Assembly: GCA_050015075.1 (NCBI GenBank)
Contig: JBEKCB010000001.1
Coordinates: 96,001-160,000 of the forward strand
DNA length: 64,000 bases
Origin: Candidatus Brocadiia bacterium
GTDB taxonomy: Bacteria; Planctomycetota; Brocadiia; CAIUPP01
Reading direction: 5' to 3'
Position 1 is the first letter of the stretch; every line of letters begins with the position of its first letter. Position numbers and translations under genes: made by a program. Below are positions 32,614-63,372 of this stretch, piece by piece. Below the pieces are notes generated by a model. The model searched no databases. It worked only from the letters and a program-made list of their open reading frames with translations, and had not been told where the DNA came from.

Positions 32614-32704
32614 TTTTGACGCGATTCGCCGGATTCACGGGATTCCTGCGCGCGGCAATGGCAGCCGCGGCGACTCGATCCCCTTGATACGGCGATCCTG
32701 TCAA
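32614..32704. repeat. 9-nt periodic palindrome TTGACGGGATT...ATCCTGTCAA (family L), copy 1
   Basis: TTTTGACGCGATTCGCCGGATTCACGGGATT ... ATCCCCTTGATACGGCGATCCTGTCAA. Confidence 0.7.
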
Positions 32705-32724
32705 TGACAGATCGGAGAAACGAG

Positions 32725-33273
32725 ATGACGAAGAAAGCTGAAGCCGTTGAAACCGCGTCCATCGCCGCGCTGAGGCCTCGTCGGCGCCTCGCGCGCCTGG
32801 CGGGATTGGCCTGCGTGCTGCTCGCGCTCCTCTCCTTCGGCGCCTGCTCGATCCTGCCGGCGGAACACGCGACGGACCCGGCCAGGGAGCGAAGCCTCCG
32901 CCTCATCGCGCGAGAGCCGAACCGCCTGACGTTCAAATTCGTCGCCCACTCCAGACCCGGCGCGGCGCCCGTCGGCCTGACGTTCTGGCTTGGCGACAAG
33001 GAGCATACCATTATCAGCTTGTCGGCCGAACGCGGCACCACGGTGCTGGAGTACACGCCCGAAGGGCTTTTCTGGACAACGGAATGGCCGCCGGAAGGGG
33101 TATTCGCAAAAACCGGCCACATGCGCGCCGGCCCGATGCCGCTCAGCGACTTCGCCTTCCGCCCCGATCCGCTGGTGCCGGACGCCGACGGCCGCCTGGC
33201 CATCGCCGACGGCGCCCGGCCGGGCGGACCGAAGGTCACGATTTACCTGAGCATCGCAGACTTTGAACTATGA
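32725..33273 (+). CDS. Hypothetical lipoprotein
   Basis: Hydrophobic segment ending LSFGA|C; GC-rich codon usage; start uncertain. Confidence 0.65.
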   Translation: MTKKAEAVETASIAALRPRRRLARLAGLACVLLALLSFGACSILPAEHATDPARERSLRLIAREPNRLTFKFVAHSRPGAAPVGLTFWLGDKEHTIISLSAERGTTVLEYTPEGLFWTTEWPPEGVFAKTGHMRAGPMPLSDFAFRPDPLVPDADGRLAIADGARPGGPKVTIYLSIADFEL

Positions 33274-33292
33274 TCGAAATTTGACGGGAGAG

Positions 33293-33385
33293 TTTTGACG
33301 GGATTTACCTGATGCACGGGATTTCTGCTAACGGCGACGGTGGCCGACGGGATTTGATCCACTTGATCCTGCGATCCTGTCAAAA
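33293..33385. repeat. Family L palindrome, copy 2
   Basis: TTTTGACGGGATTTACCTGATGCACGGGATT ... ATCCACTTGATCCTGCGATCCTGTCAAAA. Confidence 0.75.
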
Positions 33386-33538
33386 CTGTTATGCCGGACG
33401 AATTCGTGAGGGAAATCGAGGGACAGCAAGCTCGTGGAGCGGTGCTTGACAATGCCTCTGCTCAGGGATAGACTCCGGTTGGCCTAGGCGGGCGCAGCCC
33501 CAAAGGTCGCGCCGGCGGGTGAACTGACGGATACGATA

Positions 33539-33904
33539 ATGCTCGGCACAACATACAGAGTTGCGGATACCTTCGACCGGTCGGAACACGTCGTTCTGTA
33601 CCCCGGAGATTGTCTCGACCTTCTCAGGACGATACGCGATGGCACCATTCAACTGGTAGTCACTTCACCTCCTTACAACATCGGCAAAGAATACGAACAA
33701 CGTCTTGATCTGGAAAACTACCTGGAGCAGCAAGCGAAGGTCATTCGCGAATGCGCACGGACGGTCGCTCCGACCGGAAGCATCTGCTGGCAGGTGGGTA
33801 ATTACGTTGATAAAGGGGCAATTATACCCCTGGCTACGCTGCTTTACACCTTCTTCAGCAAACTCGGCCTAAGAATGAGAAACCGCAGTGCCGAATCCTG
33901 CTAA
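33539..33904 (+). pseudogene. Truncated site-specific DNA (N4-C/N6-A) methyltransferase, beta class
   Basis: GDCLDLL, LVVTSPPYNIGKEYE, GSICWQVGN. Stops after MRNR and lacks the FxGxG SAM-binding motif. Confidence 0.8.
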
Positions 33905-34808
33905 AGTCGCCTTTATAGACGAGTTGAAAAGACGGTTTGGGGCAATCCGTAAGCTGGAGAATAGCCAATCACTCTACGAAGCAGGCGGAGGCCGAGCGCG
34001 CTTATACTTTCGCTACTCCAAGAGACATCCGCGGAATCGCACCTTCTTCGGGCTAAGGAAAGTTGATCTTCAGGCTCTTGAAGGGCACGACGGCATTCTC
34101 TGCTTCTTTTGGGATGGACAGCGGGAACCGCTATTCGTACCCTACGGAGAATTCGAGGACATTTTTGCAGGACTGAGTCCTGCAAGTGATGGTCAGTACA
34201 AAGCGCAAGTGTATGAGGAAGCAGATGGAACGGAGCTCTACATTGCCAACGCTGGCAGATTCAATGTGGAAAGTTATCTCGGTTGGAGCTACCTCGAGTC
34301 GATCATGGGGCCTTCTCCCAATGTATATCCAGAACTGAACCATTTTCAGGTACAGACGCTACTTGGCGCGATAGGTGCCGCAAAAGGGTTCGATATATGG
34401 ATACCGTCGAACGACAGAGCCAATCTCGACTGGGGCCTCACAGGACCGTTTCGGGTATCGAACGCTCTTCCCTCACGTCTACAGCCCGTAAGAGAAGTCG
34501 CTGAAGAAATTGATGTGATTTGGATTGCTCGTGGCGGAGATCGTCCCGCTGCACTTTACGAAGTTGAACATTCGACGCCGATTTATTCTGGCTTATTGCG
34601 ATTCAACGACGTCTTCCTCGTACTTCCGACCGTGCCAATGCGTTACGGAATAGTGTCTAATGATAACCGAAGGTCCCTTTTCGTAAGGCAAATCTCGCGG
34701 CCGACATTCAAGGCAAGCGGGCTAAGGGAGAATTGCACATTTCTTGAATACCGTAACGTATTCGGATGGCACCAAAGGCTGAACACTGGGGGCAATCAAG
34801 GTGAATAA
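33888..34808 (+). CDS. Putative PD-(D/E)xK restriction-endonuclease-like protein
   Basis: C-terminal GFDIWIPSND, EIDVIW, YEVEHSTPIYSGLLRFND; visibly lower GC. Confidence 0.6.
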   Translation: MPNPAKVAFIDELKRRFGAIRKLENSQSLYEAGGGRARLYFRYSKRHPRNRTFFGLRKVDLQALEGHDGILCFFWDGQREPLFVPYGEFEDIFAGLSPASDGQYKAQVYEEADGTELYIANAGRFNVESYLGWSYLESIMGPSPNVYPELNHFQVQTLLGAIGAAKGFDIWIPSNDRANLDWGLTGPFRVSNALPSRLQPVREVAEEIDVIWIARGGDRPAALYEVEHSTPIYSGLLRFNDVFLVLPTVPMRYGIVSNDNRRSLFVRQISRPTFKASGLRENCTFLEYRNVFGWHQRLNTGGNQGE

Positions 34809-35112
34809 GCAAGCCGAAACAGTATATGTGGCGGTCTTCGTAGCGCGCGGATTTGTTTCAGAAATTCGGGCCTACAACGGACCGAGAGCCGCCAGGCGGC
34901 AGGAAAGAGCTTGGCGTCGCAAGATGAACCCTGATTACGATGAAACTGGCTGGGCTTGTGTCAACGTCAGGCAAATGTCCGACGCAAAGCGCCAAAGTGT
35001 GCAAAGAAGAAAGCAGCGTGACGCCGAGTTCCGGGGCGTCATTTGCAGTCAACTGAAAGATTTGAATATGCCGCCCCATAATACCGTCCGCGTAACACTT
35101 CCGCGCGTCTAG
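34801..35112 (+). CDS. Hypothetical protein
   Basis: ORF overlapping the upstream stop within the low-GC islet. Confidence 0.45.
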   Translation: MNKQAETVYVAVFVARGFVSEIRAYNGPRAARRQERAWRRKMNPDYDETGWACVNVRQMSDAKRQSVQRRKQRDAEFRGVICSQLKDLNMPPHNTVRVTLPRV

Positions 35113-35415
35113 TAACAGTGCGCGGTAAGAGAGTACTCTCGATGCTTAACCGGTTCCTCAAGGAAACCTACCAAGTTACGTTTTCGGCTAACGCGTTTAT
35201 AGAATGTCACCGTAAAGAGGAAGCCCTGAGAGAAGTTCTTGAACTGATAGATGAATTGGACAAGTTCCGGTAGAGGTACTTCGCGGGACACAACACATCA
35301 ATTATCCTTGGCGAATTCGCTGAAATGTCGGGGCGGCGCTCGTAAGAAAGGATGAAGGCTGAAGTCGGAAGGATGAAGTTATATCTGAGTAGCACCTGTC
35401 TGCAAGCCACAGCTG

Positions 35416-35613
35416 TCAACCAGCTACCTGGAACTCCATGCTGCGCGCTTCGGCTACGCGGTGAGAGGCATCGAGCACCTCGATTGAAATGAGGTTGCCT
35501 TCGGCATCGTAGTCCAGAATGACGCCGGGCTTGTCCTCGTCGCTTTCCGCCACCGGGCCGGGCTTGAACACCACCGTCAACGTGTCGGTTCGCGCATCGT
35601 AGGTCGCCTTCAT
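35416..35613 (-). CDS. DUF2283 family protein (putative antitoxin)
   Basis: MKATYDARTDTL...GVILDYDAEGNLISIEVLDAS. Confidence 0.85.
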   Translation of the reverse strand: MKATYDARTDTLTVVFKPGPVAESDEDKPGVILDYDAEGNLISIEVLDASHRVAEARSMEFQVAG

Positions 35614-35870
35614 GGCTGGCTCCTGTACTTTTCGATTTTGCGGGTTCGGTAGACCGTGACGACCTCCGGCGGGTGCCGGTCCACGTCCACAAAGACACGG
35701 ACAAGGAAACCGTCGGCGATGGCCTGCGCGACGACGCGGCCGGCGCGCACGGGGAGAATCTGCTCCGGCTTGCTCAGAACCGCGCGAACGGATGCTTCGT
35801 TCAACTGGCGTCTCCGCATCTGTTTGCGCGCGTGATCCGTCAAGACGGCTTCGCGAAGGTCGTTCTCCAC
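35610..35870 (-). CDS. DUF4258 family protein (putative RelE-like toxin)
   Basis: TDHARKQMRRR, RVFVD, VVTVYRT; ATGA overlap with DUF2283. GTG start is inferred. Confidence 0.8.
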   Translation of the reverse strand: MENDLREAVLTDHARKQMRRRQLNEASVRAVLSKPEQILPVRAGRVVAQAIADGFLVRVFVDVDRHPPEVVTVYRTRKIEKYRSQP

Positions 35871-36110
35871 GGCTTGATTATAACACCTTTTCTTCATATG
35901 GCAACTGCTTGAACGGTACTTCGCTGGATAGTTTTGAAGCCGGAAGGCGGAAGGATGAAGCTGAACCTGAGCGGCGGCAGCACAGGCGAGGCGCCTTTGC
36001 CACGCCTCTTGACAATGCCTCTGCGCGCCGATACAGTCGGCTAAGTCGTGCGGGAAATCCCGGTCATCGCCTGACGCCCGCTGCGACCTGCGGAACGGAG
36101 GTCTTCACCG

Positions 36111-36851
36111 ATGATCATTGATTCTCACGCGCATTTGAAGCACGGGGACGCGGGGCATACGGAGTATTTGCCGGGACAGATTATCGCTACGATGGATGCG
36201 GCGGGGATTGATCGGGCGGTGGTGTTCGGGATCTGCACTACGCCGGAGCGCGCGATCGAGATGGCGCGGGCGGCGGCGGAGAGGTTCCCGAAGCGGCTGA
36301 TCCCTTACGCTTACGGGCTGCCCAGCTATTCGGGCGACGTGCTGCGGATGGTCGAGAGGGCTGTGCGCGATTACGGGTTCAAGGGAATTAAGATTCACGC
36401 GGGCGAGTGCACTCTGTCGGATTACGTGAGCGACCCGATTTTCGCGCTGGCCGGCGACCTGGGCGTGCCCTGCTTGGTGGATTGCTGCGGGAACTGCGCG
36501 GCGATGGAGCGGCCGGCGGCCAAGTTCCCTAAGACGCGGTTTATCGTGGCGCACCTGGGCTTGTACCTGGCGACGGACGTGCGGGTGATTGATAGTTTCA
36601 TCGCGATGGCGGAACGGCACGCGAATGTGCTGCTGGACGTGAGCGGGGTGGTGCAGTCGTGGAAGGTTCGCGAGGCGGTGCAGCGGATCGGCTCGTCGCG
36701 GATTGTCTGGGGCACGGACGGGCCGCATCCATGTCCGGATACCGCGACTTTCGCGCGCGACGAACTGGCGAGGGTCCGCGCGCTGGGGCTGGCGCCTGCG
36801 GATGAGGAGGCGGTGCTCGGCGGCTCGATCGCGCGCTTGCTCGGACTATAA
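36111..36851 (+). CDS. Amidohydrolase (Amidohydro_2) family protein
   Basis: IIDSHAH, GFKGIKIH, VAHLG, WGTDGP. Confidence 0.85.
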   Translation: MIIDSHAHLKHGDAGHTEYLPGQIIATMDAAGIDRAVVFGICTTPERAIEMARAAAERFPKRLIPYAYGLPSYSGDVLRMVERAVRDYGFKGIKIHAGECTLSDYVSDPIFALAGDLGVPCLVDCCGNCAAMERPAAKFPKTRFIVAHLGLYLATDVRVIDSFIAMAERHANVLLDVSGVVQSWKVREAVQRIGSSRIVWGTDGPHPCPDTATFARDELARVRALGLAPADEEAVLGGSIARLLGL

Positions 36852-36853
36852 TA

Positions 36854-36886
36854 GAGTGCGGACCGCGGAGTGCGGACTGCGGAGTG
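36854..36886. repeat. Heptamer array (GAGTGCG/GACTGCG)n
   Basis: Reverse complement of the array at 16087-16107. Confidence 0.65.
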
Positions 36887-36907
36887 TAAAATCGGGAGAG
36901 ATAATTG

Positions 36908-38674
36908 ATGCATTGCGCCTTACGAATGCGGGGGATTGTTTTCATGACTCTTGCGTTGTCTGCGGCCGGCCGCGGGTATGCCGATAATCTGGTGAAAGTC
37001 TCGGGGTGGGAGTTGTACCAGAGCGGCGGCGGCGTGGCGGAGATGAAGACGGACGCCGCCGGCGACGCGCTGACCGTGACGATTACGAAGGCGACGTCGC
37101 CGTTCTACCTGATTCAACTGAGCCAGGCGCTGGGCGCGCCGGCGGCGGAAGGGGACCGACTCCGGTTTTCGTTTCGCGCGCGCTCGGCGAGCGGGAATCC
37201 GCTGCGGGCCGTGATCGAGCTGAGCGGTCCGCCGTTTGACGCGGTGACGGATGTCAACGTGACGGCCACGCCCGAATGGCGCGAGTACTCGACGGAGTCC
37301 GAGACGAACCGGGCGTACGAATCCGGCGGCCTGAGCGCGCGCTTGCAGTGCGGCGGGCAGCCCGGCGTCATCGAGTTCGCGGCGCTGCGCGTCGAAAATC
37401 TCGGTCCCGATCCGAAGGCGGCCGCGGCGCGCGCGGCGATCGAACCGGCGGCGGTCGAGGAGCGTATCCGCAAGATCCGGAGCGGAGATATGCGCCTGGT
37501 GGTCCGCGGCGCGGACGGGAAGGCGGTCCCCGGCGCGGACGTCCGCGTGGAGATGACGCGCAGCGAGTTTCTTTTCGGCTGCAATATTTTCATGCTGAAT
37601 CCGTCCAACACGGAGCCGTGGCAGATCGCGTACCAGAAGGAATTCACGGACCTGCTCAACTACGCGACGCTTCCGTTCTACTGGGGAGCGTTTGAGCCGG
37701 AGCGCGGCAAGCCGCAGTACGAACGGCTCGAAGCGATGGCGCGCTGGTGCCGCGATCACGGGATCGAACGGAAAGGGCATCCGCTGGTCTGGCACGAGGT
37801 GTGGCCGAAGTGGGCGCCGACGGGGGCGGATGAGGCGATTCCACTTCTGCGCGAGCGCGTGCTGGCGATCATCCGGCACTATCGCGGACTGATCAGCTAC
37901 TGGGACGTGCTGAACGAGGCGAACAACGCGGTGAACTACGCCGACCGCGCCGGCGAGGGCGCATGGATCAAGCGCGATGGCGCGGCGGCGGTGGTCGCCA
38001 CGGCGCTCGGGTGGGCGCGCGAGGCTGCCGGCTCGGACCACGACACGCTGCTGTACAACGATTTCAATACGGGCGACGCCAACATGCAGCTGCTCGGGCA
38101 GCTCCGGGAACGCAACGCGCTGCCGGACGCGATCGGAATCCAGTCGCACATGCACGACGGCGTCTGGCCGCTGCGCAGCGTGTGGGAGACCTGCGAGCGC
38201 TTCGCGGCTTTCAACCGGCCGATTCATTTCACGGAAACGACGGTGCTGAGTTCGATGAAGAAGCCGAAATCTTACGATGACGTCCCGCGCGGCGACTGGC
38301 CGACGACGCCGGAAGGCGAAGCGGCGCAGGCGGAATATGTCGAGAAGTTTTATGCGCTGCTGTTCAGCCATCCGGCGGTGCAGGCGATCACGTGGTGGGA
38401 TTTCAGCGACCGCGGCGCGTGGCGCAATGCGCCGTCGGGGCTGGTCCGCGAGGACATGTCGCCGAAGCCGGCGTACGAAAAGCTGCACGCGCTGATCCGC
38501 GGAAAGTGGTGGACGAACGCGGGCGGAAAGAGCGATGCGGCCGGGATATTCTCAACGCGCGCGTTCTACGGCGATTATCGGATCGTCGTGACCTCCGCCG
38601 ACGGCCGCCGCGCCGAAACGGCCGCGCATTTTTCGTCCGGTACGCGGGGACCGATCGAGGTGAAGCTGCCGTAA
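36908..38674 (+). CDS. GH10 glycoside hydrolase (xylanase-like) with N-terminal CBM4/9-like domain
   Basis: KGHPLVW, WDVLNE (acid/base), AIGIQSH, IHFTE (nucleophile), ITWWDF, PKPAY. Confidence 0.85.
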   Translation: MHCALRMRGIVFMTLALSAAGRGYADNLVKVSGWELYQSGGGVAEMKTDAAGDALTVTITKATSPFYLIQLSQALGAPAAEGDRLRFSFRARSASGNPLRAVIELSGPPFDAVTDVNVTATPEWREYSTESETNRAYESGGLSARLQCGGQPGVIEFAALRVENLGPDPKAAAARAAIEPAAVEERIRKIRSGDMRLVVRGADGKAVPGADVRVEMTRSEFLFGCNIFMLNPSNTEPWQIAYQKEFTDLLNYATLPFYWGAFEPERGKPQYERLEAMARWCRDHGIERKGHPLVWHEVWPKWAPTGADEAIPLLRERVLAIIRHYRGLISYWDVLNEANNAVNYADRAGEGAWIKRDGAAAVVATALGWAREAAGSDHDTLLYNDFNTGDANMQLLGQLRERNALPDAIGIQSHMHDGVWPLRSVWETCERFAAFNRPIHFTETTVLSSMKKPKSYDDVPRGDWPTTPEGEAAQAEYVEKFYALLFSHPAVQAITWWDFSDRGAWRNAPSGLVREDMSPKPAYEKLHALIRGKWWTNAGGKSDAAGIFSTRAFYGDYRIVVTSADGRRAETAAHFSSGTRGPIEVKLP

Positions 38675-38677
38675 CAG

Positions 38678-38939
38678 TTTTGCCACGGATTACGCGGATT
38701 TACACGGATTACCGGCGGGGAGATTGGAAAAAAGAAACGGCTTTCTGCCACGGATTTCACGGATGGCCACGGATTACCGGCGGCGGACTTGAAAAACGAA
38801 ACGACTTTTGCCGCGGATTTCACGGATGGCCACGGATTACCGGAAAATCAAGGCAACGGCCGGTTCTAGTTTTGCAGTTCGTTGCCGGTAATCCGTGGAA
38901 ATCCGTGTAATCCGTGGCTAAGTTTGCGTTATCCGTGGC
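38678..38939. repeat. 9-nt periodic CCACGGATT palindrome family, three tandem left arms plus inverted arm
   Basis: GCCACGGATTTCACGGATGGCCACGGATTACCGG-like x3 at about 64-bp spacing, then CCGGTAATCCGTGGAAATCCGTGTAATCCGTGGC. Confidence 0.85.
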
Positions 38940-38954
38940 GAGAAAAAACGGAGA

Positions 38955-40259
38955 ATGAACGCTATGTCTGCGAAAGGGCTTGGCTTCAAGGAACGCGCGC
39001 TGACGGAAGATGAGGTGCGGCAGATTTTCACCCGCGCGATTGACGCGGCGGCGCTGCGCGGGAAGCGGGTGGTCTGCCTGCTCCCGGACAGCACGCGCAC
39101 CTGCCCGCTGCCGATGCTGTTCCGGCTAATGTGCGAGACGGCCGGCGCGGTCGCGTCGAAACTCGACTTTATCATCGCGCTCGGCACCCATCCGCCGATG
39201 AGCGACGAGGCGATCAACCTGATGCTGAGAATCCCCGCCGGCGAGCGCAAGACCAAGTTCGGCAAGTTCGGCATCTTCAACCATCGCTGGGACGAGCCGA
39301 AGGAGCTCAAGGTCATCGGCACGATCCCGGCCGACGAGGTGGAGCGCATCTCGCACTGCCTGCTGAAAGAGGACGTGCGCGTGGAGGTCAACCGGCGGCT
39401 GGACGAGTACGACCAGGTCGTCATCATCGGGCCGACGTTCCCGCACGAGGTGATCGGGTTCTCCGGCGGCAACAAGTATTTCTTCCCGGGCATTTCGGGG
39501 CCGGAAGTGCTGAACTTCTTCCACTGGCTCGGGGCGATGATGACGATCCCGGTGATCATCGGCGCGAAGCGCACGCCGGTGCGGCAGGTGGTGGACAAGG
39601 CGGCCGAGTTCATCACGATGCCGAAGCTCTGCTTCAGCCTGGTGATCCACCACGCGGAGATTTACGGCCTGTACGCCGGGACGCCCGAAGAGGCGTACGA
39701 CCGCGCCGCCGATCTCTCGCGGGAGCTGCACATCACGTACGTGCAGAAGCCGTTCCGCCGCGTGCTCTCGTGCGCGCCGGAGATGTACGACGACATCTGG
39801 ACGGCCGGCAAGTGCATGTACAAGCTCGAGCCGGCGCTCGCCGACGGCGCGGAGCTTGTGATCTACGCGCCGCACATCACCGAGGTCTCGTACACGCACG
39901 GCAAAGTGCTCGACCGGATCGGGTATCACGTGCGCGACTATTTCCGGACGCGGATGGGCCTGTTCAAAGAGTATCCGCGCGGCGTGATAGCGCATTCGAC
40001 GCATGTCAAGGGAATCGGCACGTTCAAGGACGGCGTCGAGAAGCCGCGCGTGAACGTGGTCCTGGCGACGCAGATCCCGAAGGAGCGCTGCGAGCGGATC
40101 AACCTGGGCTACCTGGACCCGCGCTCGATCAAGCCGGCCGAGTGGGACGGCCGCGAGTCCGAAGGCGTGGTGCGCATCCCGAAGGCCGGCGAGGTGCTCT
40201 ACCGCCTGGCCGACGGCACCGTCCCGCGGATTCCCGGGGATGACGGGTACGAGCTGTAG
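38955..40259 (+). CDS. Lactate racemase LarA (DUF2088) domain protein
   Basis: PDSTRT, IALGTH, PHEVIGFSGGNK. Confidence 0.8.
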   Translation: MNAMSAKGLGFKERALTEDEVRQIFTRAIDAAALRGKRVVCLLPDSTRTCPLPMLFRLMCETAGAVASKLDFIIALGTHPPMSDEAINLMLRIPAGERKTKFGKFGIFNHRWDEPKELKVIGTIPADEVERISHCLLKEDVRVEVNRRLDEYDQVVIIGPTFPHEVIGFSGGNKYFFPGISGPEVLNFFHWLGAMMTIPVIIGAKRTPVRQVVDKAAEFITMPKLCFSLVIHHAEIYGLYAGTPEEAYDRAADLSRELHITYVQKPFRRVLSCAPEMYDDIWTAGKCMYKLEPALADGAELVIYAPHITEVSYTHGKVLDRIGYHVRDYFRTRMGLFKEYPRGVIAHSTHVKGIGTFKDGVEKPRVNVVLATQIPKERCERINLGYLDPRSIKPAEWDGRESEGVVRIPKAGEVLYRLADGTVPRIPGDDGYEL

Positions 40260-40390
40260 GACTTCCGCGGCGCGGGAGGATGATTCGGCCGAGCGCGCGG
40301 TGTGCTCGTCCTCGTCGTCGTCCTCGTCCTCGAACGGCTGTAACGAACGGCCGAGGACGAGGACGACGACGAGGACGAGAACGATTGGGC
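40230..40390 (+). repeat. Direct repeat 1: larA 3' end plus family A palindrome
   Basis: 44 bp identical (40323-40366 = 41068-41111) with flanking similarity to 41000-41135. Confidence 0.85.
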
Positions 40391-40501
40391 GGTGTTGACC
40401 GACGGACAGGAATTCGGGCGTATGCTATAATACGTTTAGCCCGAGCATAAAGACCCGGAGAACCGGAACCGGCGGACGGGATGATTGCGGGGAGCGCGCG
40501 A

Positions 40502-40741
40502 ATGAAATTCTATTCGTTTCAGATTGTGATCGAGAAAGAAACCGAGGACGAGGGCTATTACGCCTACAGTCCGACGCTGCCGGGCTGTTTCAGCAACGGG
40601 AAAACCATCGAGGAAGCCCGCCGCAACATGCGGGAAGCGGTTGAACAACACGTCCAGTCGCTTCTCAAGCGCTCCCAGAAGATCCCGCAGGACGACAAAC
40701 TGGTGCACGTTGAAGAGCTGACCGTGGGCGTGCCCGGATGA
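40502..40741 (+). CDS. hicB: HicB-like antitoxin (short)
   Basis: YYAYSPTLPGCFSNGKTIEEARRNMREAV. Confidence 0.88.
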   Translation: MKFYSFQIVIEKETEDEGYYAYSPTLPGCFSNGKTIEEARRNMREAVEQHVQSLLKRSQKIPQDDKLVHVEELTVGVPG

Positions 40742-40965
40742 GCCGCATGCCGCAGGTCAAGGCCGGCGAGCTTGTGCGATTTCTTAAAGCGCGAGGCTTT
40801 GTCGAAGACCGGCAAAGCGGCAGCCACTTGACGCTCTGGCACGAAGGGCGCAAAGTCTCCATCACCGTTCCCATCCACAAAGGTTGCGATATCGGTCGCG
40901 GCCTGGCGCTTCGTATCCTCCGGGATTCCGGGTTCAGTGTGGACGAGTTCCTGGAAGGCCGATGA
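40738..40965 (+). CDS. hicA: HicA-like mRNA interferase toxin
   Basis: GFVEDRQSGSH, ITVPIH, ILRDSG. Confidence 0.88.
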   Translation: MSRMPQVKAGELVRFLKARGFVEDRQSGSHLTLWHEGRKVSITVPIHKGCDIGRGLALRILRDSGFSVDEFLEGR

Positions 40966-40999
40966 ACTCAAGGCCGAAGCGGCAGCCGGGGCACACTTA

Positions 41000-41135
41000 A
41001 ATCCCGACGACGAGGGATGCACGCTCTGAGGCTGCGGCGGCGCGGGGGATGATTCGGACGGCTCGTGCTCGTCCTCGAACGGCTGTAACGAACGGCCGAG
41101 GACGAGGACGAGTTCGAGGACGAGGACGATTGGGC
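41000..41135 (+). repeat. Direct repeat 2: degenerate larA 3' end plus family A palindrome
   Basis: Reads NPDDEGCTL* versus larA IPGDDGYEL*, then GCGGCGCGGGGGATGATTCGG and the shared 44-mer. Confidence 0.8.
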
Positions 41136-41151
41136 TGCGCGGCGAATCTCG

Positions 41152-41180
41152 TTGACACCCACCGCCTTCGGCGCTATCAT
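41152..41180 (+). promoter_or_regulatory. Sigma70-type promoter
   Basis: TTGACA-17 nt-TATCAT. Confidence 0.55.
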
Positions 41181-41236
41181 CGGCTGGCCGTTTCGGTGTG
41201 CCAAACCGCCTGTCCGCCGCTTCTTGAGGTGCCCTC

Positions 41237-45919: not shown

Positions 45920-45932
45920 AAACGAGCGCGAA

Positions 45933-46034
45933 GAACTTGGAACATTCAACGTTGAACGTCCAACGCGGAAAGGAGCGCGACACGCGCAGTCGGTCCTTCG
46001 ACGTTCGAAGTTCGACGTTGGATGTTCGACGTTC
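45933..46034. repeat. Heptamer palindrome (GAACGTT)n...(GTTCGAC)n
   Basis: GAACATTCAACGTTGAACGTCCAACG ... CGACGTTCGAAGTTCGACGTTGGATGTTCGACGTTC. Confidence 0.8.
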
Positions 46035-46109
46035 GCCGTTCTGAAGACAACCGTTCAATGGCAAGAAGTTGAAAGCTCTCTCCCAGTCAGATTGGAAAGG
46101 ACCCGATTC

Positions 46110-47897
46110 ATGGCCAGCCGCCCCGCCCGCAAGAAAAACGCGCCGCGCGCTCTGCCGAGCGACTTCCTGGCGCACGGACTCGAGACCATGCCGCACCGCG
46201 CGCTGATGTTCGCCACCGGCGTCACGCGCTCGCAGATCGGCAAGCCGCTCATCGGCATCGCATCGTCCTTCACCGACCTGATCCCCGGCCACGCCGACAT
46301 GCGCTCGCTCGAGCGCTTCATCGAGCGCGGCGTCGCCGCCGCCGGCGGAGTGCCCTTCGTCTTCGGCATCCCCGGCATCTGCGACGGCATCGCCATGGGC
46401 CACTTCGGCATGCGCTACAGCCTGCCCTCGCGCGAACTCATCGCCGACATGGTCGAATCCATCGTCCGCGCGCACTCGCTCGACGGCGTGCTGCTGCTGA
46501 CCAACTGCGACAAGATTACGCCCGGAATGCTCATGTCCGCGGTGCGGATGGACGTGCCCGCCGTCGTGCTCACCGCCGGGCCGATGATCACCGGCCGGCT
46601 CTCCTGCCCCGGCCCGGGCGAGGGCAAACGGCTCGACCTGGTGAAGGACACGTTCGAGGCCTGGATCCAGTACGACCGCGGCCAGATGAGCCGCGAGGAG
46701 ATGCTCGACCTGGAGATCAACGCCTGCCCCGGCGCCGGCTCGTGCCAGGGGCTTTACACGGCCAACACCATGGCCTGCCTGACCGAGGCGATGGGCATGT
46801 CGCTCGTCGGCTGCGGCACCGGCCTGGCGATGTCCGGCAAAAAGAAACGCCTCGCCTACGAATCCGGGCGGCGCGTGGTCGAGCTGGTCCGCGCGGGCGT
46901 CACGCCGCGCCAGATCGTGACGCGGACGGCGCTGATGAACGCCGCGCGGGTGGACATGGCGATGGGCGGCTCGTCCAACAGCGTGCTGCACCTGACGGCC
47001 ATCGCGCGCGAGGCCGGGATCGGCCTCGACCTGGAGCTGTTCGACCGCGTCAGCCGCGGCACGCCGCAGATCGTCAGCCTGCGGCCCGGCGGGGAGAACT
47101 TCATGGAGGACGTTGAATACGCCGGCGGCGTGCCGGCGATCCTAAACGTGCTGCGCCCGCTCCTCCAGGACAACCCGACCGTCAGCGGGCCCGGCCTGCT
47201 GGAGATCGCCGACCGGCATCCGCCGATCCGCATCGAGTACCTCGTCGAGCGCGACCCGGCCACCGGCGAGTTCGTCTCGCGCAAGCGGACGATCATCCAC
47301 CCCCTGCAGACGCCGGTGCGGCCCGAGGGCGGCATCGCGATCCTGCGCGGCAACCTGGCGCCCGGCGGCGCGGTCATCAAGGCCTCGGCGCTCGACCCGA
47401 CGATGCTGCGTTTCACCGGCCGCGCGCTCTGCTTCAACAGCGAGACCGAAGGCATGGCGGCCATCCGCGACCTGCCGAAGCGGCTGCCGAAGACAGGCAA
47501 CCTGGTCCTGGTGATCCGGTATGAAGGCCCGCGCGGCGGACCGGGCATGCCGGAGATGCTCTCGCCGACGGCGGCGCTGGCGGGCTATCCGGTGGAGATC
47601 AAGAACCGGGTGGCGCTGATCACCGACGGGCGTTTCAGCGGCGGCACACGCGGCCCGTGCGTCGGGCACATCTCGCCCGAGGCCGCCGGCGGCGGTCCGA
47701 TCGCGCTGGTCCGCGACGGCGACGAGATCGAGCTCGACGTCCCCGCGCGCAAGCTGACCGTGCACCTGTCCGCGGCGGAACTGGCGCAGCGCCGGAAGCG
47801 CTGGAAGCCGGCCGCGGCGAGGAAGCTCACCGGCTGGCTGGCGCGCTACGCCAAGCTGGTCGGCGACGCGGCGTCCGGCGCGACGTTGAACGCGTAA
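46110..47897 (+). CDS. ilvD: Dihydroxy-acid dehydratase
   Basis: [54 protein letters not shown]. Confidence 0.95.
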
Positions 47898-47933
47898 AGC
47901 GGGGAATTTGAACGCCGGCAGGGACATTGTTCC

Positions 47934-48185
47934 ATGAACCGGAAGAAACTGCTGAGACGATTGGCGCAGGGGTCGTTGCACAATGTTGCCTTTTCGGATA
48001 TGGTGAACCTGGCGCGGGGATTTGGTTTCACCCTTGGCCGGGTTGCTGGAAGCCACCACATACTTATGCACCGGGATATCTCCGAACTGGTGAATCTGCA
48101 GGAAGTTCATGGCGAGGCGAAGCCATATCAGATTCGGCAATTCCTGAGGCTGGTGGAGCGGCACAATTTGAAGCTCGAGGAGTGA
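47934..48185 (+). CDS. hicA: HicA-like toxin
   Basis: GFTLGRVAGSHHI, VNLQ, AKPYQIRQ. Confidence 0.85.
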   Translation: MNRKKLLRRLAQGSLHNVAFSDMVNLARGFGFTLGRVAGSHHILMHRDISELVNLQEVHGEAKPYQIRQFLRLVERHNLKLEE

Positions 48186-48188
48186 GCT

Positions 48189-48410
48189 ATGGCAGACTAT
48201 CACATCAACATTTTCTACAGTGAAGAGGATGCGGGATACATCGCCGACATCCCGGATCTGGAGAGCTGTTCTGCTTTTGGTCAAACTCCGGAAGCGGCGC
48301 TCGCGGCGGTCGAGGAGGCAAAACGGGCCTGGCTTAAAGCCGCGCGCGCGGCGCACAAGCCGATTCCACCTCCGCAGTATCGGCCGGTCATTTACCAAAT
48401 GGCAAAGTGA
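48189..48410 (+). CDS. hicB: HicB-like antitoxin
   Basis: YIADIPDLESCSAFGQTPEAAL...WL...PIPPP. Confidence 0.88.
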   Translation: MADYHINIFYSEEDAGYIADIPDLESCSAFGQTPEAALAAVEEAKRAWLKAARAAHKPIPPPQYRPVIYQMAK

Positions 48411-48448
48411 GCTTCTTCGCGCCCCCGACGCGATCTCCAGTCCGCCGT

Positions 48449-48467
48449 GGCGAGGAAGCTCACCGGC
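48449..48467 (+). repeat. 19-bp direct repeat of the ilvD 3' region
   Basis: GGCGAGGAAGCTCACCGGC at both 47816-47834 and 48449-48467. Confidence 0.8.
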
Positions 48468-48483
48468 AAGCGGAAGCTGAACC

Positions 48484-48699
48484 ATGGCGAAGCACACGAT
48501 GAGCGAAATCGTCTTTCAGGTCGAGGAAGATCCCGTGGACGGCGGCTACGTCGCCCGTGCGTTGGGGCATGGGATCACCACGCAGGCTGAGTCCATCGCC
48601 GAGTTGAAGAAAATGATCCGCGACGCGGTCTGCTGCCACTTCGACAAGCCCGCGGGGCCGGTTGTGCTGCAGGCTGGATTCCCGCCTTCGCGGGAATGA
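48484..48699 (+). CDS. Orphan HicB-like protein, C-terminus probably replaced by a repeat
   Basis: EIVFQVEEDPVDGGYVARALGHGITTQAES..ELKKMIRDAV.CHF; ends inside GGATTCCCGCCTTCGCGGGAATGAC. Confidence 0.65.
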   Translation: MAKHTMSEIVFQVEEDPVDGGYVARALGHGITTQAESIAELKKMIRDAVCCHFDKPAGPVVLQAGFPPSRE

Positions 48700-48700
48700 C
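48675..48700. repeat. ATTCCC-N8-GGGAAT palindrome (single copy)
   Basis: Identical to 58057-58082. Confidence 0.8.
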
Positions 48701-48756
48701 GATAAAAGCTTCGAAACGATATTGACCTTGCGCCCCGAACCTGCGCCTCGTCGCGG

Positions 48757-49974: not shown

Positions 49975-49991
49975 ACGGTCATGCGACTTTT

Positions 49992-50147
49992 CACCACCAA
50001 GGCACCAAGAACGGCAACTCATATTGCAACCACGGAACACACGGATGACACTGAAACTTTTTTAGAAAAGTCATTCAGTGTGTTCCGTGTATTCAGTGGT
50101 GGAAGGCGTTGTGTCTTTTTCTCTTGGTGTCTTCGTGCCTTGGTGGT
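49992..50147. repeat. Nested 9-nt periodic palindromes
   Basis: Outer CACCACCAAGGCACCAAGA...TCTTGGTGTCTTCGTGCCTTGGTGGT; inner ACCACGGAACACACGGATGACACTGAA...TTCAGTGTGTTCCGTGTATTCAGTGGT (50029-50100). Confidence 0.8.
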
Positions 50148-50189
50148 TAACTTGGTGGTGATTCTGGACTCTGGCAGAGGATGATAACT

Positions 50190-50999: not shown

Positions 51000-51022
51000 A
51001 TCTTCCACCAGGGCGACACGGA

Positions 51023-51175
51023 CTTTCACCACCATGGCGCGAGCTTTCACCACGACGACACAACGGACACGACGAAGGCGACACTGCGAATATCGGCACA
51101 ACGGCTTACCGTAACAGCAGTTCCGTCGTGATCGTCGTGTCGTCGTGGTGAAAGCTCGTGTCGCGGTGGTGAAGT
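51023..51175. repeat. Family C palindrome nested in an outer TTCACCACC...GGTGGTGAA palindrome
   Basis: GAGCTTTCACCACGACGACAC...GTGTCGTCGTGGTGAAAGCTC. Confidence 0.82.
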
Positions 51176-51211
51176 TGCCGCAGCGAGCGCAAGTTTCCAG
51201 CCGGATTCCGC

Positions 51212-51248
51212 TTGACACGCGTCACCCAGTGTACTATAATACCAGCAC
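51212..51248 (+). promoter_or_regulatory. Consensus sigma70 promoter with probable overlapping GntR/YtrA operator
   Basis: TTGACA-17 nt-TATAAT; imperfect palindrome GTGTACTATAATACCAGCAC; ATG at 51250. Confidence 0.7.
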
Positions 51249-51249
51249 A

Positions 51250-51651: not shown

Positions 51652-51666
51652 AAAGGAGGGGCAGTC

Positions 51667-52710: not shown

Positions 52711-52741
52711 GACGGACGAGCATGCGGACCCGCCCAAAGCA

Positions 52742-52800
52742 CTGCTTGCAGTGTTCCCGTCCGGGCATACGAGGCAGCGCCCGACGGCGCCACTACAAGC
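52742..52800. repeat. GTAG-type REP pair (degenerate copy)
   Basis: Matches 59984-60043 and 63311-63370. Confidence 0.8.
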
Positions 52801-52810
52801 TGGAAAATTC

Positions 52811-52908
52811 CTTGACGCGGGCCACGTCGGTCGCCAGAATATGCCCGATATCACGTTTGATCGAGGTCGAGCGGAAGACCGGACAGATGCTGAGGGAATT
52901 GACGGGGC
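52811..52908 (+). pseudogene. Collapsed remnant of the 53602-54243 unit
   Basis: 52811-52877 resembles 53602-53665 and joins directly to GCGGAAGACC..CAGATGCTGAG.GAA.TGA, resembling 54205-54240. Confidence 0.65.
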
Positions 52909-53027
52909 ATGATCAACCGCGTCTTGTCCCTTGCTCGCAGCGCGCGCCTGGGCTAAGATGACTCGTAGCAGAGGCGCTGGGGCGTCTTTGCGGATGAGCG
53001 GATTTCATCAATTCCGGAGAGCGAGCC

Positions 53028-53216
53028 ATGGGGCGCAAACTCATTGCGATCGTCGTCGCGGCGGCGTTGGCGCTCGGCATCGGGGCGTGCGGAGAGAAGC
53101 AGCCGCCGCCGGACAAGCGGTCGGATGCCGAGAAATCGGCGGACAACGCCGGCAAGGCGCTCGAAGGCGCCGCCAAGCGCGCGAAGAACGCCGTTGACGG
53201 CGATTCGAGTAAGTAG
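53028..53216 (+). CDS. Small lipoprotein
   Basis: Signal peptide ending GIGA|C; GGAG RBS. Confidence 0.75.
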   Translation: MGRKLIAIVVAAALALGIGACGEKQPPPDKRSDAEKSADNAGKALEGAAKRAKNAVDGDSSK

Positions 53217-53262
53217 CTGTTTGACGTGGGCAAAACGGCGTTTGCGGAGGCGGCCGGACGGA

Positions 53263-53602
53263 TCAACTCGTTATCCCCGGCGGTTCGTTTTCGTCGCGCC
53301 AATGTGTCTCGTCTCCAAGAAGGCGGATCAGGTTCTTCAGGTTCTTGACCAGTTCCGGAAGGTGCTCCTTCACTACCGCGTACACTTTTTCCAGGTTCAC
53401 GGCCCCGTAGTTGTGCGCGAGGACGGGGCGCATGCCGACAATGAGCGGCCAGGAGATCTCGATCGCGCGCTGACGAATCTCGTCGCTGACCATCCGCGCC
53501 GCCTCGCCGATCACTTCCACGCAACGAATGACTGCGGATTGAACCAAGCCGTCAGCGGGGAAATCCTCGAGGGAACGCCTGCTCAAATATTGAACCGCGC
53601 GC
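53263..53602 (-). pseudogene. HepT/DUF86 HEPN ribonuclease, 5'-truncated, no MNT partner
   Basis: SAVIRCVEVIGEAA, WPLIVGMRPVLAHNY (Rx4H). The N-terminus is overwritten by the 53602 promoter-like sequence. Confidence 0.72.
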
Positions 53603-53677
53603 TTGACATGGCCACGGTCACTAGAATATGACAAATCGGGCATTTGATCGAGGCCGAGGCGAAGGAGGGGAAATAGC

Positions 53678-54265
53678 ATGGACATGATGCCCGAGATACC
53701 GAAGGACCTTCAAGACGACGTCGAGCGCCAACTCGACCAGGGCGAGCGCATCCGATGGATGGAACAGCCGGTTCCCCGCTTCTTTACGGCGGGGTCAACA
53801 AGCGCGTTTATCTTCGGCATCCCGTGGACGGCTTTTGCCGTTTTCTGGATTTGCGGCGCCTCGGGCTTCAAGCGCCCGGATTTCAGCAAGGGCGGCTCCA
53901 GCTTCTTCCCGCTGTTTGGCGTGCCCTTCGTCCTGATCGGGATCGCCATGCTGCTCTCTCCGCTGTGGGCGCGCCGGAAAGGGCTCAAGACCGTGTATGT
54001 GATCACCGATCGAAGGGCGATCACCTTCGACGGCGGCTGGACGACAACGATTCGGAACTACACGCCGGAGCAGCTCAAGAACATGTACCGGAAGGAGAAG
54101 AAGGATGGTTCCGGGGACGTGGTTCTTGGCCAGGTCGTCGGCATGGTGACGAAAGGCGGACAAGCGCAAATGATGGACGTCGGCTTCCTTCGGGTGCGGG
54201 ACGTGCGGAAGACCGAGCAGATGCTGAGAGAACTGATGGGCCAGTCCGCCCCGGCCGCGCAGTAG
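53678..54265 (+). CDS. Hypothetical two-TM membrane protein (bPH-like C-terminus)
   Basis: LDQGERIRW..QP, two TMs, TVYVITDRRAI; GGAGG RBS. Confidence 0.75.
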   Translation: MDMMPEIPKDLQDDVERQLDQGERIRWMEQPVPRFFTAGSTSAFIFGIPWTAFAVFWICGASGFKRPDFSKGGSSFFPLFGVPFVLIGIAMLLSPLWARRKGLKTVYVITDRRAITFDGGWTTTIRNYTPEQLKNMYRKEKKDGSGDVVLGQVVGMVTKGGQAQMMDVGFLRVRDVRKTEQMLRELMGQSAPAAQ

Positions 54266-54488
54266 CCGCCCGGCGGCCGGCCTCCGTACGCGACTAAGGA
54301 ACTCGGCAAATGATGGCGATGAAGTTCTCGTGTTACGTGCGGCTCAACTTCAGTGTGCAGGCAGGATAGGGCTTTCCGTCCTCCCTCGCAATGGAATATA
54401 AAACCCTGTCCCGGCAAAAAATCCGCATGTGGCGGCGTCTAATAAAAGAGGAGAGAAGGAAACACCGTCTCCCATAATCGGGAGGAGC

Positions 54489-55388
54489 ATGGTTATGAGA
54501 CTGTCTGGAACGGCTCATCGGCGAGCGAGGCAGTTGGCAGTGATGCTGGGCGTGGCGCTGCCGGTAGTGTTCGGAGGATTGATCGTGGGCATCGCGCGGT
54601 CCGCTTGCGCGCAGCCGGCTGCTCCGACAGTCGAGGTGCGCGGCATCTGCGTAACGGGCGCACCTTACGGAATCGGTACGGAAAAGCTAGCGTCCCTCTT
54701 TGCGAAAGGCACTACGCTGACCCTCCTGGTGACGGTACCACAGGGAGGATTGTTTGCCGTCGACGACGAAAAGACGCACCTTGTCAAATTTGCCGACGAC
54801 AAAGGAACAGACTTGAGAGGGTCAACAGTTGAATTGATCGGCGAAACGTTCGATACGCCGCAAATCAGCACTGACGGCACGGCCTGCCTCGTGGAACTCA
54901 ATGGTCCAGGATTGCCCGCCAAGGACGCGACGGCCATCATGGCCTCCGGCTGTATAAGCCTCAAGTGCGGGAGCAGGAAAGAGACCGCCCGGAACGAGAA
55001 CGCGGCGCTCAAGCCCGGCACCAAGGTCGCCGCCAATCGTATCACCTTCGAGATATCCGAGGTCAGCAAGCCGCAGTTTTCATATGGTTTCTCGCAGGCG
55101 AGTGGCGCCCCGTCCGCCACGCCGCCTACGGAGCAACTCGAAGTCACCCTCAGTACCGACCAAGATTGTTCGAGCATCGCGAGCATCACCTTCTTTGACG
55201 CGGCCGGCAAGGACCTGGGCGCCAGGCTCGTTTCGTCCAGTTGGGTGCGCATGGCAGGAATGAAAAGCGGCGCGGAGTCCTTCGTCCTTTCAAAGAAGGT
55301 TGACACGGCCACGATCTCGATCACATATTGGGCAGACGTCAAGGAAGTCCTGGTGCCGTTCGACGTCAAGGCAACGCTCGGCCTGTGA
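54489..55388 (+). CDS. Hypothetical exported beta-rich protein
   Basis: GGAGG RBS, N-terminal hydrophobic segment, two similar beta-rich halves; start uncertain. Confidence 0.65.
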   Translation: MVMRLSGTAHRRARQLAVMLGVALPVVFGGLIVGIARSACAQPAAPTVEVRGICVTGAPYGIGTEKLASLFAKGTTLTLLVTVPQGGLFAVDDEKTHLVKFADDKGTDLRGSTVELIGETFDTPQISTDGTACLVELNGPGLPAKDATAIMASGCISLKCGSRKETARNENAALKPGTKVAANRITFEISEVSKPQFSYGFSQASGAPSATPPTEQLEVTLSTDQDCSSIASITFFDAAGKDLGARLVSSSWVRMAGMKSGAESFVLSKKVDTATISITYWADVKEVLVPFDVKATLGL

Positions 55389-55485
55389 CGGCATAGCGCG
55401 TTCTCTGTTCTTCTCGGGCGGACACGAGACGCTCGCAAGACTGCCGGAATCGGCGCGGGCGCTCCCGGTGGAGAAGGAGACTTCT

Positions 55486-55974
55486 GTGAGCAATGCGACG
55501 CGGATCACGAGAATCTTGGCGCGGGTGTTCGGGGTGATCATGCTGGTTTCCGCCTTCGGATTACTCGCGCTCTGCGGGTCCTGCTGCAATCGAACCGCCA
55601 AATTCAAGAAAACCGCCGTCGAGGTACAGGGCACCGTCATCGAGATGAAAGAAGGCATCAGCGCCGTTTACGGGCACACGGTGTACTATCCGATCATTCG
55701 GTACGCCGACACGGGTGGGCAGGAGCACACACTCTATTCCAACGCCGGAAGCTATCCGCCCCGGTACGCAGTCGGCGACCGCATTTCCGTCCTCTACGAC
55801 CCGGCGCGCCCGAATGCGGCGCAGGTCAATATCTTCACCCACTTGTGGCTGATGCCGATCATCCTGGGGATCATCGGCGGACCCGACCTTCTCATCGGCC
55901 TGTTCGTGTTCTTTGCCGTGCCTCACATGCTTGCCCGGGCCGAAAAGCGAGCCGCAGAAGCGAGTTCGCAGTAG
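55486..55974 (+). CDS. DUF3592 family membrane protein, copy 1
   Basis: TM, VQGTVIE, YYPIIRY, YAVGDRISVLYDP, TM; AGGAG upstream of GTG start. Confidence 0.82.
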   Translation: MSNATRITRILARVFGVIMLVSAFGLLALCGSCCNRTAKFKKTAVEVQGTVIEMKEGISAVYGHTVYYPIIRYADTGGQEHTLYSNAGSYPPRYAVGDRISVLYDPARPNAAQVNIFTHLWLMPIILGIIGGPDLLIGLFVFFAVPHMLARAEKRAAEASSQ

Positions 55975-56064
55975 CGTAGTGCTCCGGAAATACGATGCAT
56001 AAGTCCGGCGCGCGGAAGGTTGCCGGAATCTGCGATGGCGCTTCTGGTAGAGAAGGAAACTCCC

Positions 56065-56553
56065 GTGAGCGACGCGACGCGGATCACGAGAATCGTGGCG
56101 CGGGTGTTCGGGGCGATCATGCTGGCTTCTGCCTCCGGCTTACTCGCGCTCGGCGGCTCCTGCTGCAATCGAACCGTCCAATTCAAGAAGACCGCCGTCG
56201 AGGTGCAGGGCGCCGTCATCGAGCTGAAAGAAGGCAGCAGCAGCGATCACAGCCACCCGGTGTACTATCCGATCATCCGGTACGCCGACACGGCCGGCCA
56301 GGAGCGCACATTATACTCCGGTACGGGAAGCTTTCCGCCCGAGTACGCAGTCGGCGACCGCGTCTCCGTCCTCTACAACCCGGCGAATCCAAAGGATGCG
56401 AAGGTCAATTCCTTCTCCGACCTGTGGCTGCTTCCGCTCATCCTGGGGATCCTCGGCGGATTCGACCTTCTCGTGGGCCTGTTCCTGTTCTTCGGCGTGC
56501 CCTTCATCGTTGGCTGGGCCGAAAAGCGAGCTGCGCAGGCGAGTTCGCAGTAG
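56065..56553 (+). CDS. DUF3592 family membrane protein, copy 2
   Basis: Same length (162 aa) as copy 1 and highly similar to it. Confidence 0.82.
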   Translation: MSDATRITRIVARVFGAIMLASASGLLALGGSCCNRTVQFKKTAVEVQGAVIELKEGSSSDHSHPVYYPIIRYADTAGQERTLYSGTGSFPPEYAVGDRVSVLYNPANPKDAKVNSFSDLWLLPLILGILGGFDLLVGLFLFFGVPFIVGWAEKRAAQASSQ

Positions 56554-56607
56554 CAGGCCAGCAGTATCGCGTTCCTGAAGTAACACGCATAAGTCCAGAC
56601 CGCGTTA

Positions 56608-63370: not shown

Positions 63371-63372
63371 TG

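Follow-up and report, generated by a model that had tools for sequence, protein, structure and literature searches.

We analyzed a window of 64,000 nucleotides from a Candidatus Brocadiia bacterium (contig JBEKCB010000001.1, positions 96,001 to 160,000 of the forward strand); positions below are those of the window. Its G+C-content is 65% and its gene content is mostly housekeeping. A first-pass annotation had singled out six small accessory modules, here named sites (a) to (f), each lying between two direct repeats. It had attributed them, with their mainly toxin-antitoxin (TA) or defence cargo, to one dispersed cassette-capture process. We found that the repeat pairs are real and that direct repeats bracket TA and restriction-modification (R-M) genes more often than core or neighbouring genes, both in the window and in other genomes.

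The closest relative that we found, L001 (JBKQWE010000016.1), is a metagenome-assembled genome of a Candidatus Brocadiia bacterium (Planctomycetota), syntenic with window positions 30660-42422 at 79-90% nucleotide identity. Sites (a) to (d) are comparable in L001, and (e) and (f) lie outside its stretch. The closest LarA relatives listed (89% and 85%) come from non-NCBI sources only. Among the 345 open reading frames (ORFs) of at least 60 amino acids (aa) in the window, mostly shadow frames, 105 were scanned with Pfam. The features are as follows.

32597..32704, no strand: (a) copy 1, degenerate palindromic repeat, 81/108 nt identical to copy 2; L001 retains only a ~10-nt stub
32725..33273, + strand: (a) lipoprotein-like gene, no Pfam or NCBIfam match; L001 ortholog in the same place (73% aa)
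33276..33383, no strand: (a) copy 2, kept in L001
33445..33488, + strand: (b) copy 1, duplicated sigma70-type promoter match TTGACA-17-TAGACT; L001 homology breaks at its end (33487)
33539..33904, + strand: truncated N6/N4 DNA methyltransferase, N-terminal part only (PF01555 positions 1-60 of 221)
33888..34808, + strand: NmeDI-like type II restriction endonuclease (Atlas feature score 0.98, PF27126 clusters; no match in the Pfam scan of window ORFs)
35353..35389, no strand: (c) copy 1, 37-nt non-palindromic repeat (30/37, 13 nt exact), 26 nt from the DUF2283 stop
35416..35897, - strand: DUF4258 and DUF2283 pair (Pfam), own promoter match at 35904-35877; missing from L001 along with the entire (b) cargo
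35935..35971, no strand: (c) copy 2, 30 nt past the -35 box of that promoter match
36008..36051, + strand: (b) copy 2, promoter match TTGACA-17-TACAGT upstream of an amidohydrolase gene; L001 homology returns 5 nt ahead of it (36003)
40230..40403, + strand: (d) copy 1, last 10 codons of a larA-family gene, spacer, hairpin
40502..40965, + strand: (d) hicB-hicA pair (PF15919, PF07927)
41000..41157, + strand: (d) copy 2, decayed larA end, spacer, hairpin, then the -35 box of the next gene; starts 34 nt past the hicA stop
47811..47834, + strand: (e) copy 1, inside ilvD, 63 nt ahead of its stop (19 nt exact, 23/24)
47934..48410, + strand: (e) hicA-hicB pair (Pfam)
48444..48467, + strand: (e) copy 2, 33 nt past the hicB stop
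48484..48701, + strand: ORF presumed to be a second HicB-like gene (no Pfam match), its end formed by one half of a dispersed palindrome (complete at 58010-58085)
52811..52909, + strand: (f) copy 1, promoter and 5' untranslated region (UTR) that run into a paralogous copy of the 3' end of gene 53678-54265
53028..53216, + strand: (f) small lipoprotein-like gene, only weak NCBIfam matches, below cut-off
53263..53607, - strand: (f) HepT-like RNase (PF01934; NF047751 at 35.9 bits against a cut-off of 60); homology begins at the copy 2 edge
53602..54265, + strand: (f) copy 2, promoter/5' UTR and intact 195-aa gene
60060-60144 and 61612-61695, no strand: 85-nt double-hairpin pair around the core genes HPr-ptsN-hpf (80/85, 94%; fold z -5.4)

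Six repeat pairs of different kinds

All six pairs were found where the annotation had placed them and every pair outscored all 200 local shuffles, the regions having been picked after the fact. Their E-values in a whole-window blastn search ranged widely: 4e-24 for (d), 3e-13 for (a), 0.007 for (e), 0.08 for (c) and 0.99 for both (b) and (f). An order-4 Markov simulation yielded, per window, 4.2 exact repeats of at least 13 nt within 700 nt, 0.15 exact 17-nt repeats within 2.7 kb and no exact 19-nt repeat within 700 nt. Because of their high E-values and the frequency of 13-nt repeats in simulated windows, pairs (b), (c) and (f) are weak when taken alone; for (b) this is offset by the same two copies in L001, and for (f) by the paralogous gene tail.

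The annotation had described the brackets as copies of a hairpin or of local host sequence. Host sequence was indeed found at (b), (e) and (f), and the only strong hairpin among the six pairs is that of (d), whose copies fold with z-scores of -10.2 and -5.1 relative to shuffles. The pair described as palindromes at (a) is real and folds only marginally (z -1.7 and -0.8); the copies of (b), (c), (e) and (f) fold no better than shuffles. The six pairs are sites of different kinds and not of one kind. Within the window, the repeats of (a), (b), (c), (e) and (f) and the flanks of (d) occur as a single pair with no further copies, and the hairpin core of (d) has two further copies, at 4236 and 63867. 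The copies are 68-96% alike within pairs. Their lengths are 108 nt for (a), about 44 for (b), 37 for (c), about 150 for (d) and 67 for (f), all above 30 bp, with only 24 nt for (e). The downstream repeat lies 26, 34 and 33 nt from the cargo stop at (c), (d) and (e), respectively, and several cargoes are gene fragments.

At site (b), the proposed R-M/TA islet was borne out for the 17-nt exact pair (33445/36008; 30/44 when extended) and for the R-M cargo, of which the methyltransferase covers only 60 of the 221 profile positions. Both promoter copies are present in L001 (2630 and 5002), with an Eco29kI-family endonuclease and an HTH-fused methyltransferase unrelated to the cargo of the window; the G+C-content of the cargo is 53-55% in both. 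The presence of different R-M systems between the same promoter copies indicates that the slot is real and variable and that the repeats stay with the chromosome. Synonymous divergence between the window and L001 drops from 0.45-0.46 left of the slot (parB and the lipoprotein gene; 31317-33273) to 0.11-0.22 right of it (36111-42400), a change that could place a recombination boundary at the slot. We do not claim homogenisation of the promoter copies within a genome, since their pairwise identities (28-34/44) show no clear grouping. Site (c), confirmed as described, holds the DUF4258/DUF2283 pair, which we take to be a TA module; in L001 it is lost together with the (b) cargo, and (a) and (d) are filled. 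Further to the left, 375 nt without recognisable gene (32222-32597) are missing from L001, and a palindrome inside parB (31845-31860) is presumably parS-like.

Site (d), also as described, gave the strongest pair (44 nt exact at 40323/41068; 115 matches over 159 columns). Because the larA end lies within both copies, the pair arose by local duplication of about 150 nt and not from two hairpins of independent origin. Both the window and L001 carry hicBA at this position, and the window HicA is 97% identical to that of L001 and 62-78% to those of 79 other loci from many phyla. The decayed larA end in copy 2 matches the working larA end of L001 at 48/57 nt, with five non-synonymous changes and one synonymous change. 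When the larA genes of the window and L001 are compared, synonymous differences affect 6/9 same-residue codons among the last 10 versus 27/410 in the body (p=1e-5, post hoc), and no 10-codon window of the body exceeds three. The onset of this switch coincides exactly with that of the remnant, whose sequence agrees with the L001 allele. We do not claim a reciprocal crossover between the window and L001, as the pattern for it rests on one or two bases. The DNA of the module had no match in plasmid or phage collections.

The hicAB pair of site (e) lies between 19-bp copies of ilvD sequence, as proposed, and its HicA had one match (35%) among plasmid and phage proteins. At site (f), the promoter-like pair was confirmed (copy 1 matches 53602-53664 at 48/67), and copy 1 proved in addition to be joined to a paralogous gene end, matching 54199-54243 at 37/45 (E 4.5e-5). 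Judged from these alignments, copy 1 is a collapsed copy of gene 53678-54265. The HepT gene has no partner antitoxin gene beside it and is probably 5'-truncated.

Using flanks of 400 nt, six distinct pairs were found among 31 accessory gene sets versus one among 61 core sets and one among 60 others. The accessory label follows family matches for TA and R-M genes and the annotation's call for the two lipoproteins, and is partly post hoc. The lone pair among the other sets is a DUF3592 gene duplicated in tandem together with its leader (55430-55975 and 56009-56554, 83% identical). With 250-nt flanks the core pair was missed (0/61), and 8 of 1471 distant flank pairs reached the same score. That core pair, recovered with 400-nt flanks, is the double hairpin around HPr-ptsN-hpf, whose second copy sits in the glyQ leader. 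Because it brackets core genes of the phosphotransferase system (PTS), a hairpin pair alone is no proof of capture.

Palindromes are common in this window. Intergenic gaps are packed with unrelated palindromes of short tandem units (4220-4300, 12668-12760, 14046-14111, 16064-16103, 36861-36890, 38664-38921, 45945-46040, 49990-50161, 51025-51173, 58010-58085 and 63852-63960). A 63-nt element resembling repetitive extragenic palindromes (REP), with a branched fold (z -3.1), has three copies (52741-52803, 59984-60046 and 63311-63373). Two palindromes differ in copy number in L001 (5847-5990, expanded; 7818-8195, two tandem palindromes without cargo), which shows that the intergenic palindromes are dynamic. 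No cognate enzyme for them was found in the window, and the annotation's statement that the window lacks recombinases and transposases held for all 105 Pfam-scanned ORFs.

Bracketed hicBA loci in other genomes

A census was conducted with the HicA of site (d) as query. The best 80 of 124 relatives were kept, all with hicB directly upstream, and the 71 loci with 400-nt flanks were analyzed (9/80 are without such flanks; L041 is outside the 71). A repeat was counted as positive at a score of at least 36, and ORFs were called by a simple greedy rule. Direct repeats bracket 10 of the 71 hicBA loci and inverted repeats 3, against direct repeats around 10/574 neighbouring ORFs and 12/1257 sliding intervals in the controls. 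Excluding L001, 9/70 hicBA loci are bracketed relative to the 10/574 control ORFs (p=4.9e-5); collapsing the loci to 55 independent sites leaves about 6.9 positives (p=0.0014, computed with 6). A palindrome pair at L040 (score 63 at 600 nt) was not counted. Several control positives appear, in our reading of their sequences, to be accessory genes, so the control is likely conservative. The expectation that TA and R-M cargo is bracketed more often than core genes is thus supported by both the window and the census, and the scar explains only a minor share of cases, some 13% in one hicBA family.

The bracketing repeat differs at every site. Six of the nine outside repeats are unique, non-hairpin host gene termini (L009, L030, L045, L055, L057 and L077): the start of uvrB with its upstream region, the ends of genes for DAHP synthase (aroF), a moaB-like protein of MoCF biosynthesis, chorismate synthase (aroC) and a methyltransferase, and the start of an esterase gene. 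The others are a unique hairpin pair (L026) and dispersed repeats (L016 and L042). Seven of the nine are thus unique in their own locus, and these seven non-dispersed repeats are 39-264 nt long, the insert plus one copy measuring 567-1091 nt. The downstream copy begins at most 62 nt past the hicA stop in 8/9 loci. DNA homology of the loci to the window is limited to the two ORFs and the ribosome-binding region, and no terminal motif is common to the cassettes: among 2926 pairs of downstream ends, sharing was seen only at orthologous sites. The annotation had suggested a search for tyrosine or IS110 recombinases accompanying the repeats; no such enzyme, nor a serine recombinase, was found among the 84 ORFs near the 10 repeat-positive loci, which include one DDE transposase (L016) and a Cas9-Cas1-Cas2 set. 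Other window cargo gave four distant matches in the fetched loci besides the L001 lipoprotein, too few for a census.

Several of these loci present further features. In L016 (about 5580-12630), a type I R-M locus surrounds hicBA and contains about 15 REP-like palindromes, the DDE transposase and, beside the repeats, an ORF without Pfam match that we take to be like a REP-associated tyrosine transposase (RAYT); its upstream gene is common to four other loci (L007, L012, L035 and L060). The Cas9-Cas1-Cas2 set adjoins hicBA in L077 (10284-15293), on a contig titled Bathyarchaeia that is possibly mis-binned. The flanks of L002 (titled Phycisphaerae) and L011 (Anaerolineales) are 82-83% identical over about 2.8 kb, reflecting cross-phylum transfer or mis-binning. 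In L029 (16081-17629), a presumably GxxExxY-like gene lies between long tandem direct repeats.

Origin of the repeat pairs

We compared the intact and remnant copies of five loci (190 codons pooled). Decay of a copy in place is expected to leave an observed ratio of non-synonymous to synonymous change (pN/pS) of at least about 0.5 (omega 0.5). The pooled ratio was 0.25 (P=6e-4 against in-place decay), and L055 alone presented 13 synonymous changes and one non-synonymous change (P=5e-5). L057 was left out of the pool, its copies being identical (60/60). The low ratio indicates that, in at least some pairs, both copies functioned as alleles until shortly before being brought together, and it suggests that one copy came from a related donor. 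Other loci carry hicBA beside the same host genes: L042 and L043 beside uvrB without a uvrB duplicate (L050 has 294 nt downstream only, matching L043), and L054 beside moaB without a duplicate, its 224 upstream bases spanning the position of the L055 remnant. L042, L043 and L054 may thus look as a donor should, although an earlier loss of the duplicate is also possible.

We lean slightly towards reading the repeat pairs as insertion-duplication scars of general host recombination and not as att sites. A fragment of about 0.55-1.1 kb for TA modules, and up to 2.6 kb for R-M, would consist of a complete unit and a piece of adjacent host DNA. It would come from a relative in which the unit already adjoined that gene; the model starts from a unit already placed. 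Once the DNA had entered the cell by some route, one crossover inside the shared piece, presumably dependent on RecA, would integrate it while the other end would be joined illegitimately; a small circle integrating Campbell-style would be formally equivalent. One copy would keep the gene end or promoter working and the displaced copy would decay. Addiction would help to retain the cargo, the bracketed slot could later exchange it, as at (b), and hairpins would occur in the repeat only if the target contains them. This model fits sites (b) to (e) and possibly (f), and leaves (a) aside. A bolder version, which we regard as doubtful, is that sub-kilobase circles spread TA and R-M modules free of mobility genes among related bacteria. 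Each circle would carry a piece of a host gene end or promoter that serves as its 'attP', would integrate by host recombination and could re-excise between the repeats. The outcome would be a cassette cycle that renews itself without an integrase, occurs across phyla and is especially active in this Planctomycetota lineage.

Several observations weigh against an insertion-duplication origin. No repeat above threshold was found around 61/70 of the homologous cassettes, nor around E. coli mazEF and yafNO (scores 20 and 26). The divergence signal leans on L055: without it the pooled pN/pS is 0.32 (P=0.036), no other locus falls below P 0.05 over its full repeat, keeping a non-homologous tail of L077 in the alignment gives P=0.11, and L057 cannot separate the models because its copies are identical. 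L077 and (f) may be plain remnants of tandem paralogs. At (e), copy 2 is not followed by a recognisable ilvD tail. L001 has the (d) cassette and yet retains the 'old' larA end, so that a further event or another crossover must be invoked, and the larA test was post hoc. Finally, the annotation had looked to relatives for empty single-copy sites, and 0/4 sites testable in L001 show such an allele, (b) holding other cargo.

The target could alternatively have been duplicated in place at the first insertion, by repair of a break or staggered nick, the identical copies diverging later by decay or allele replacement. The L057 copies, the similar copies of L030 (107/113), and the (d) remnant, with its match to the working L001 allele and its decay-type changes, all fit this scenario. 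Double-strand breakage is also invoked for R-M cases in excerpts of PMC2853133. The changes at L055, however, cannot come from decay in place, and relatives exist that carry the cassette in the same position but no duplicate, though loss is possible. In addition, HicA is an RNase and HicAB encodes no DNase. We consider duplication in place unlikely.

Elements that integrate in gene ends, such as e14 at icd, show the same topology and synonymous divergence, and the pairs could be attL and attR, with a replacement gene end, of integrative elements reduced to their addictive module. Every target is different, however, two are 5' ends, and the repeats lie within tens of bases of the TA unit. The 84 nearby ORFs contain no integrase remnant, the (d) cargo is unmatched in plasmid and phage collections, the ends share no terminal motif or att core, and tRNA and Rfam scans of the window gave no match, hence no tRNA target there; we find this origin quite improbable. 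If dispersed REP-like palindromes had spread independently into most of the gaps between genes, pairs would arise around any gene and the modules would be unrelated events. The further copies of the (d) hairpin, the REP-like copies at 52741, 59984 and 63311, the 94% pair around the PTS genes and the dispersed repeats of L016 and L042 are of this type, and such spread may explain (a). Yet the copies of (d) have unique flanks in common, including the larA end, (b), (e), (f) and 6/9 outside cases are unique host sequence, and direct repeats exceed inverted ones. The gene-end duplicates refute palindrome spread as a general account, which leaves it very improbable. The annotation's single hairpin-using system, in which a HUH (RAYT), tyrosine or IS110 enzyme would act in trans, could draw on the hairpins at (d), L026, L016 and L042, on the presumed RAYT-like ORF beside the L016 repeats and on a window unusually rich in such sites, with all five TA/R-M modules (b) to (f) bracketed. 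The repeats are nevertheless mutually unrelated, non-hairpin pairs make up 4/6 in the window and 6/9 outside, terminal motifs are common only at orthologous sites, the cargo includes gene fragments and no attC signature is present; this system is not supported and we consider it highly improbable. Assembly artefacts might be suspected in metagenome-type assemblies, as for the exact 60-nt repeat of L057 on a 1.7-kb contig. Against this, the paired copies in the window differ (68-96% identity), and L001, assembled independently, also has (b) and (d), so that artefacts are a negligible concern.

Comparison with known systems

The pattern is real and better supported than the window alone suggested, and it is a variant of a known process, not a new cassette or enzyme system. 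Like integron cassettes, the modules are small, lie next to promoters, are rich in TA and defence genes and in some cases adjoin hairpins. They differ in lacking attC consensus, array and integrase, in their unrelated repeats and in their gene-fragment cargo. As the annotation had stated, attC ends are absent: a motif search, made with no attC covariance model, found 48 RYYYAAC-type matches in the window versus 58 expected, with one at the start of (a) copy 1 only. The window contains no IntI integrase, and its repeats are of different families, without a same-family array of the kind seen in clusters of attC sites lacking integron-integrases (CALIN). As in REP/RAYT systems, several palindrome families are dispersed in the window and REP-like repeats surround hicBA in L016, but most brackets are unique host sequence, no RAYT was found in the window and hairpin ends occur only at (d) and weakly at (a).

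Variable TA pairs between core genes are also known as E. coli islets free of mobile genetic elements (mazEF and yafNO), and E. coli strains without mazEF exist. The mechanism of chromosomal TA integration in E. coli is described as unelucidated in excerpts of PMC7167474. Flanking repeats distinguish the modules reported here from these islets.

The annotation's fallback, homology-facilitated illegitimate recombination (HFIR), came closer. HFIR combines one homologous anchor with one illegitimate joint, and in its classical form usually deletes recipient DNA. The present pattern is like HFIR and insertion-duplication in natural transformation in its anchor and illegitimate joint, short fragments and use of host enzymes only, and differs from classical HFIR in that the anchor is duplicated. 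Excerpts of PMC8116780 indicate that DNA taken up could circularise at direct repeats.

The closest precedent is a class of R-M gene insertions that lack a mobility gene and duplicate their target over long, variable lengths (Furuta, Abe, Kobayashi 2010, PMC2853133; also cited in PMC2654758, each drawn on in excerpts). These duplications often span start or stop codons and are enriched over control genes, and R-M types substitute allelically; they are tied there to DNA breakage by the restriction enzyme, and empty sites are required. The sites reported here resemble them in that addictive genes lie between direct repeats of host DNA without a mobility gene, with enrichment over controls and an R-M substitution at (b). 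Three of five features of such insertions were found: repeats above 30 bp, no mobility gene, and enrichment. In contrast, the cargo is mostly TA pairs without DNase, the copies often differ like alleles, which points to a donor, and no empty sites were obtained from the one relative. We found no description of such a scar for TA modules in the titles and abstracts of the open-access literature, which does not prove its absence. Since duplications also surround TA pairs of the RNase type, small addictive or defence genes may share a general route through host recombination, a testable mode of integrase-free entry into chromosomes. The scar can be counted in public genomes, and the model predicts that its two copies represent different alleles and that the phylogeny switches where the repeat starts. 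Altogether, the pattern likely belongs to insertion with long target duplication, extended to TA modules.

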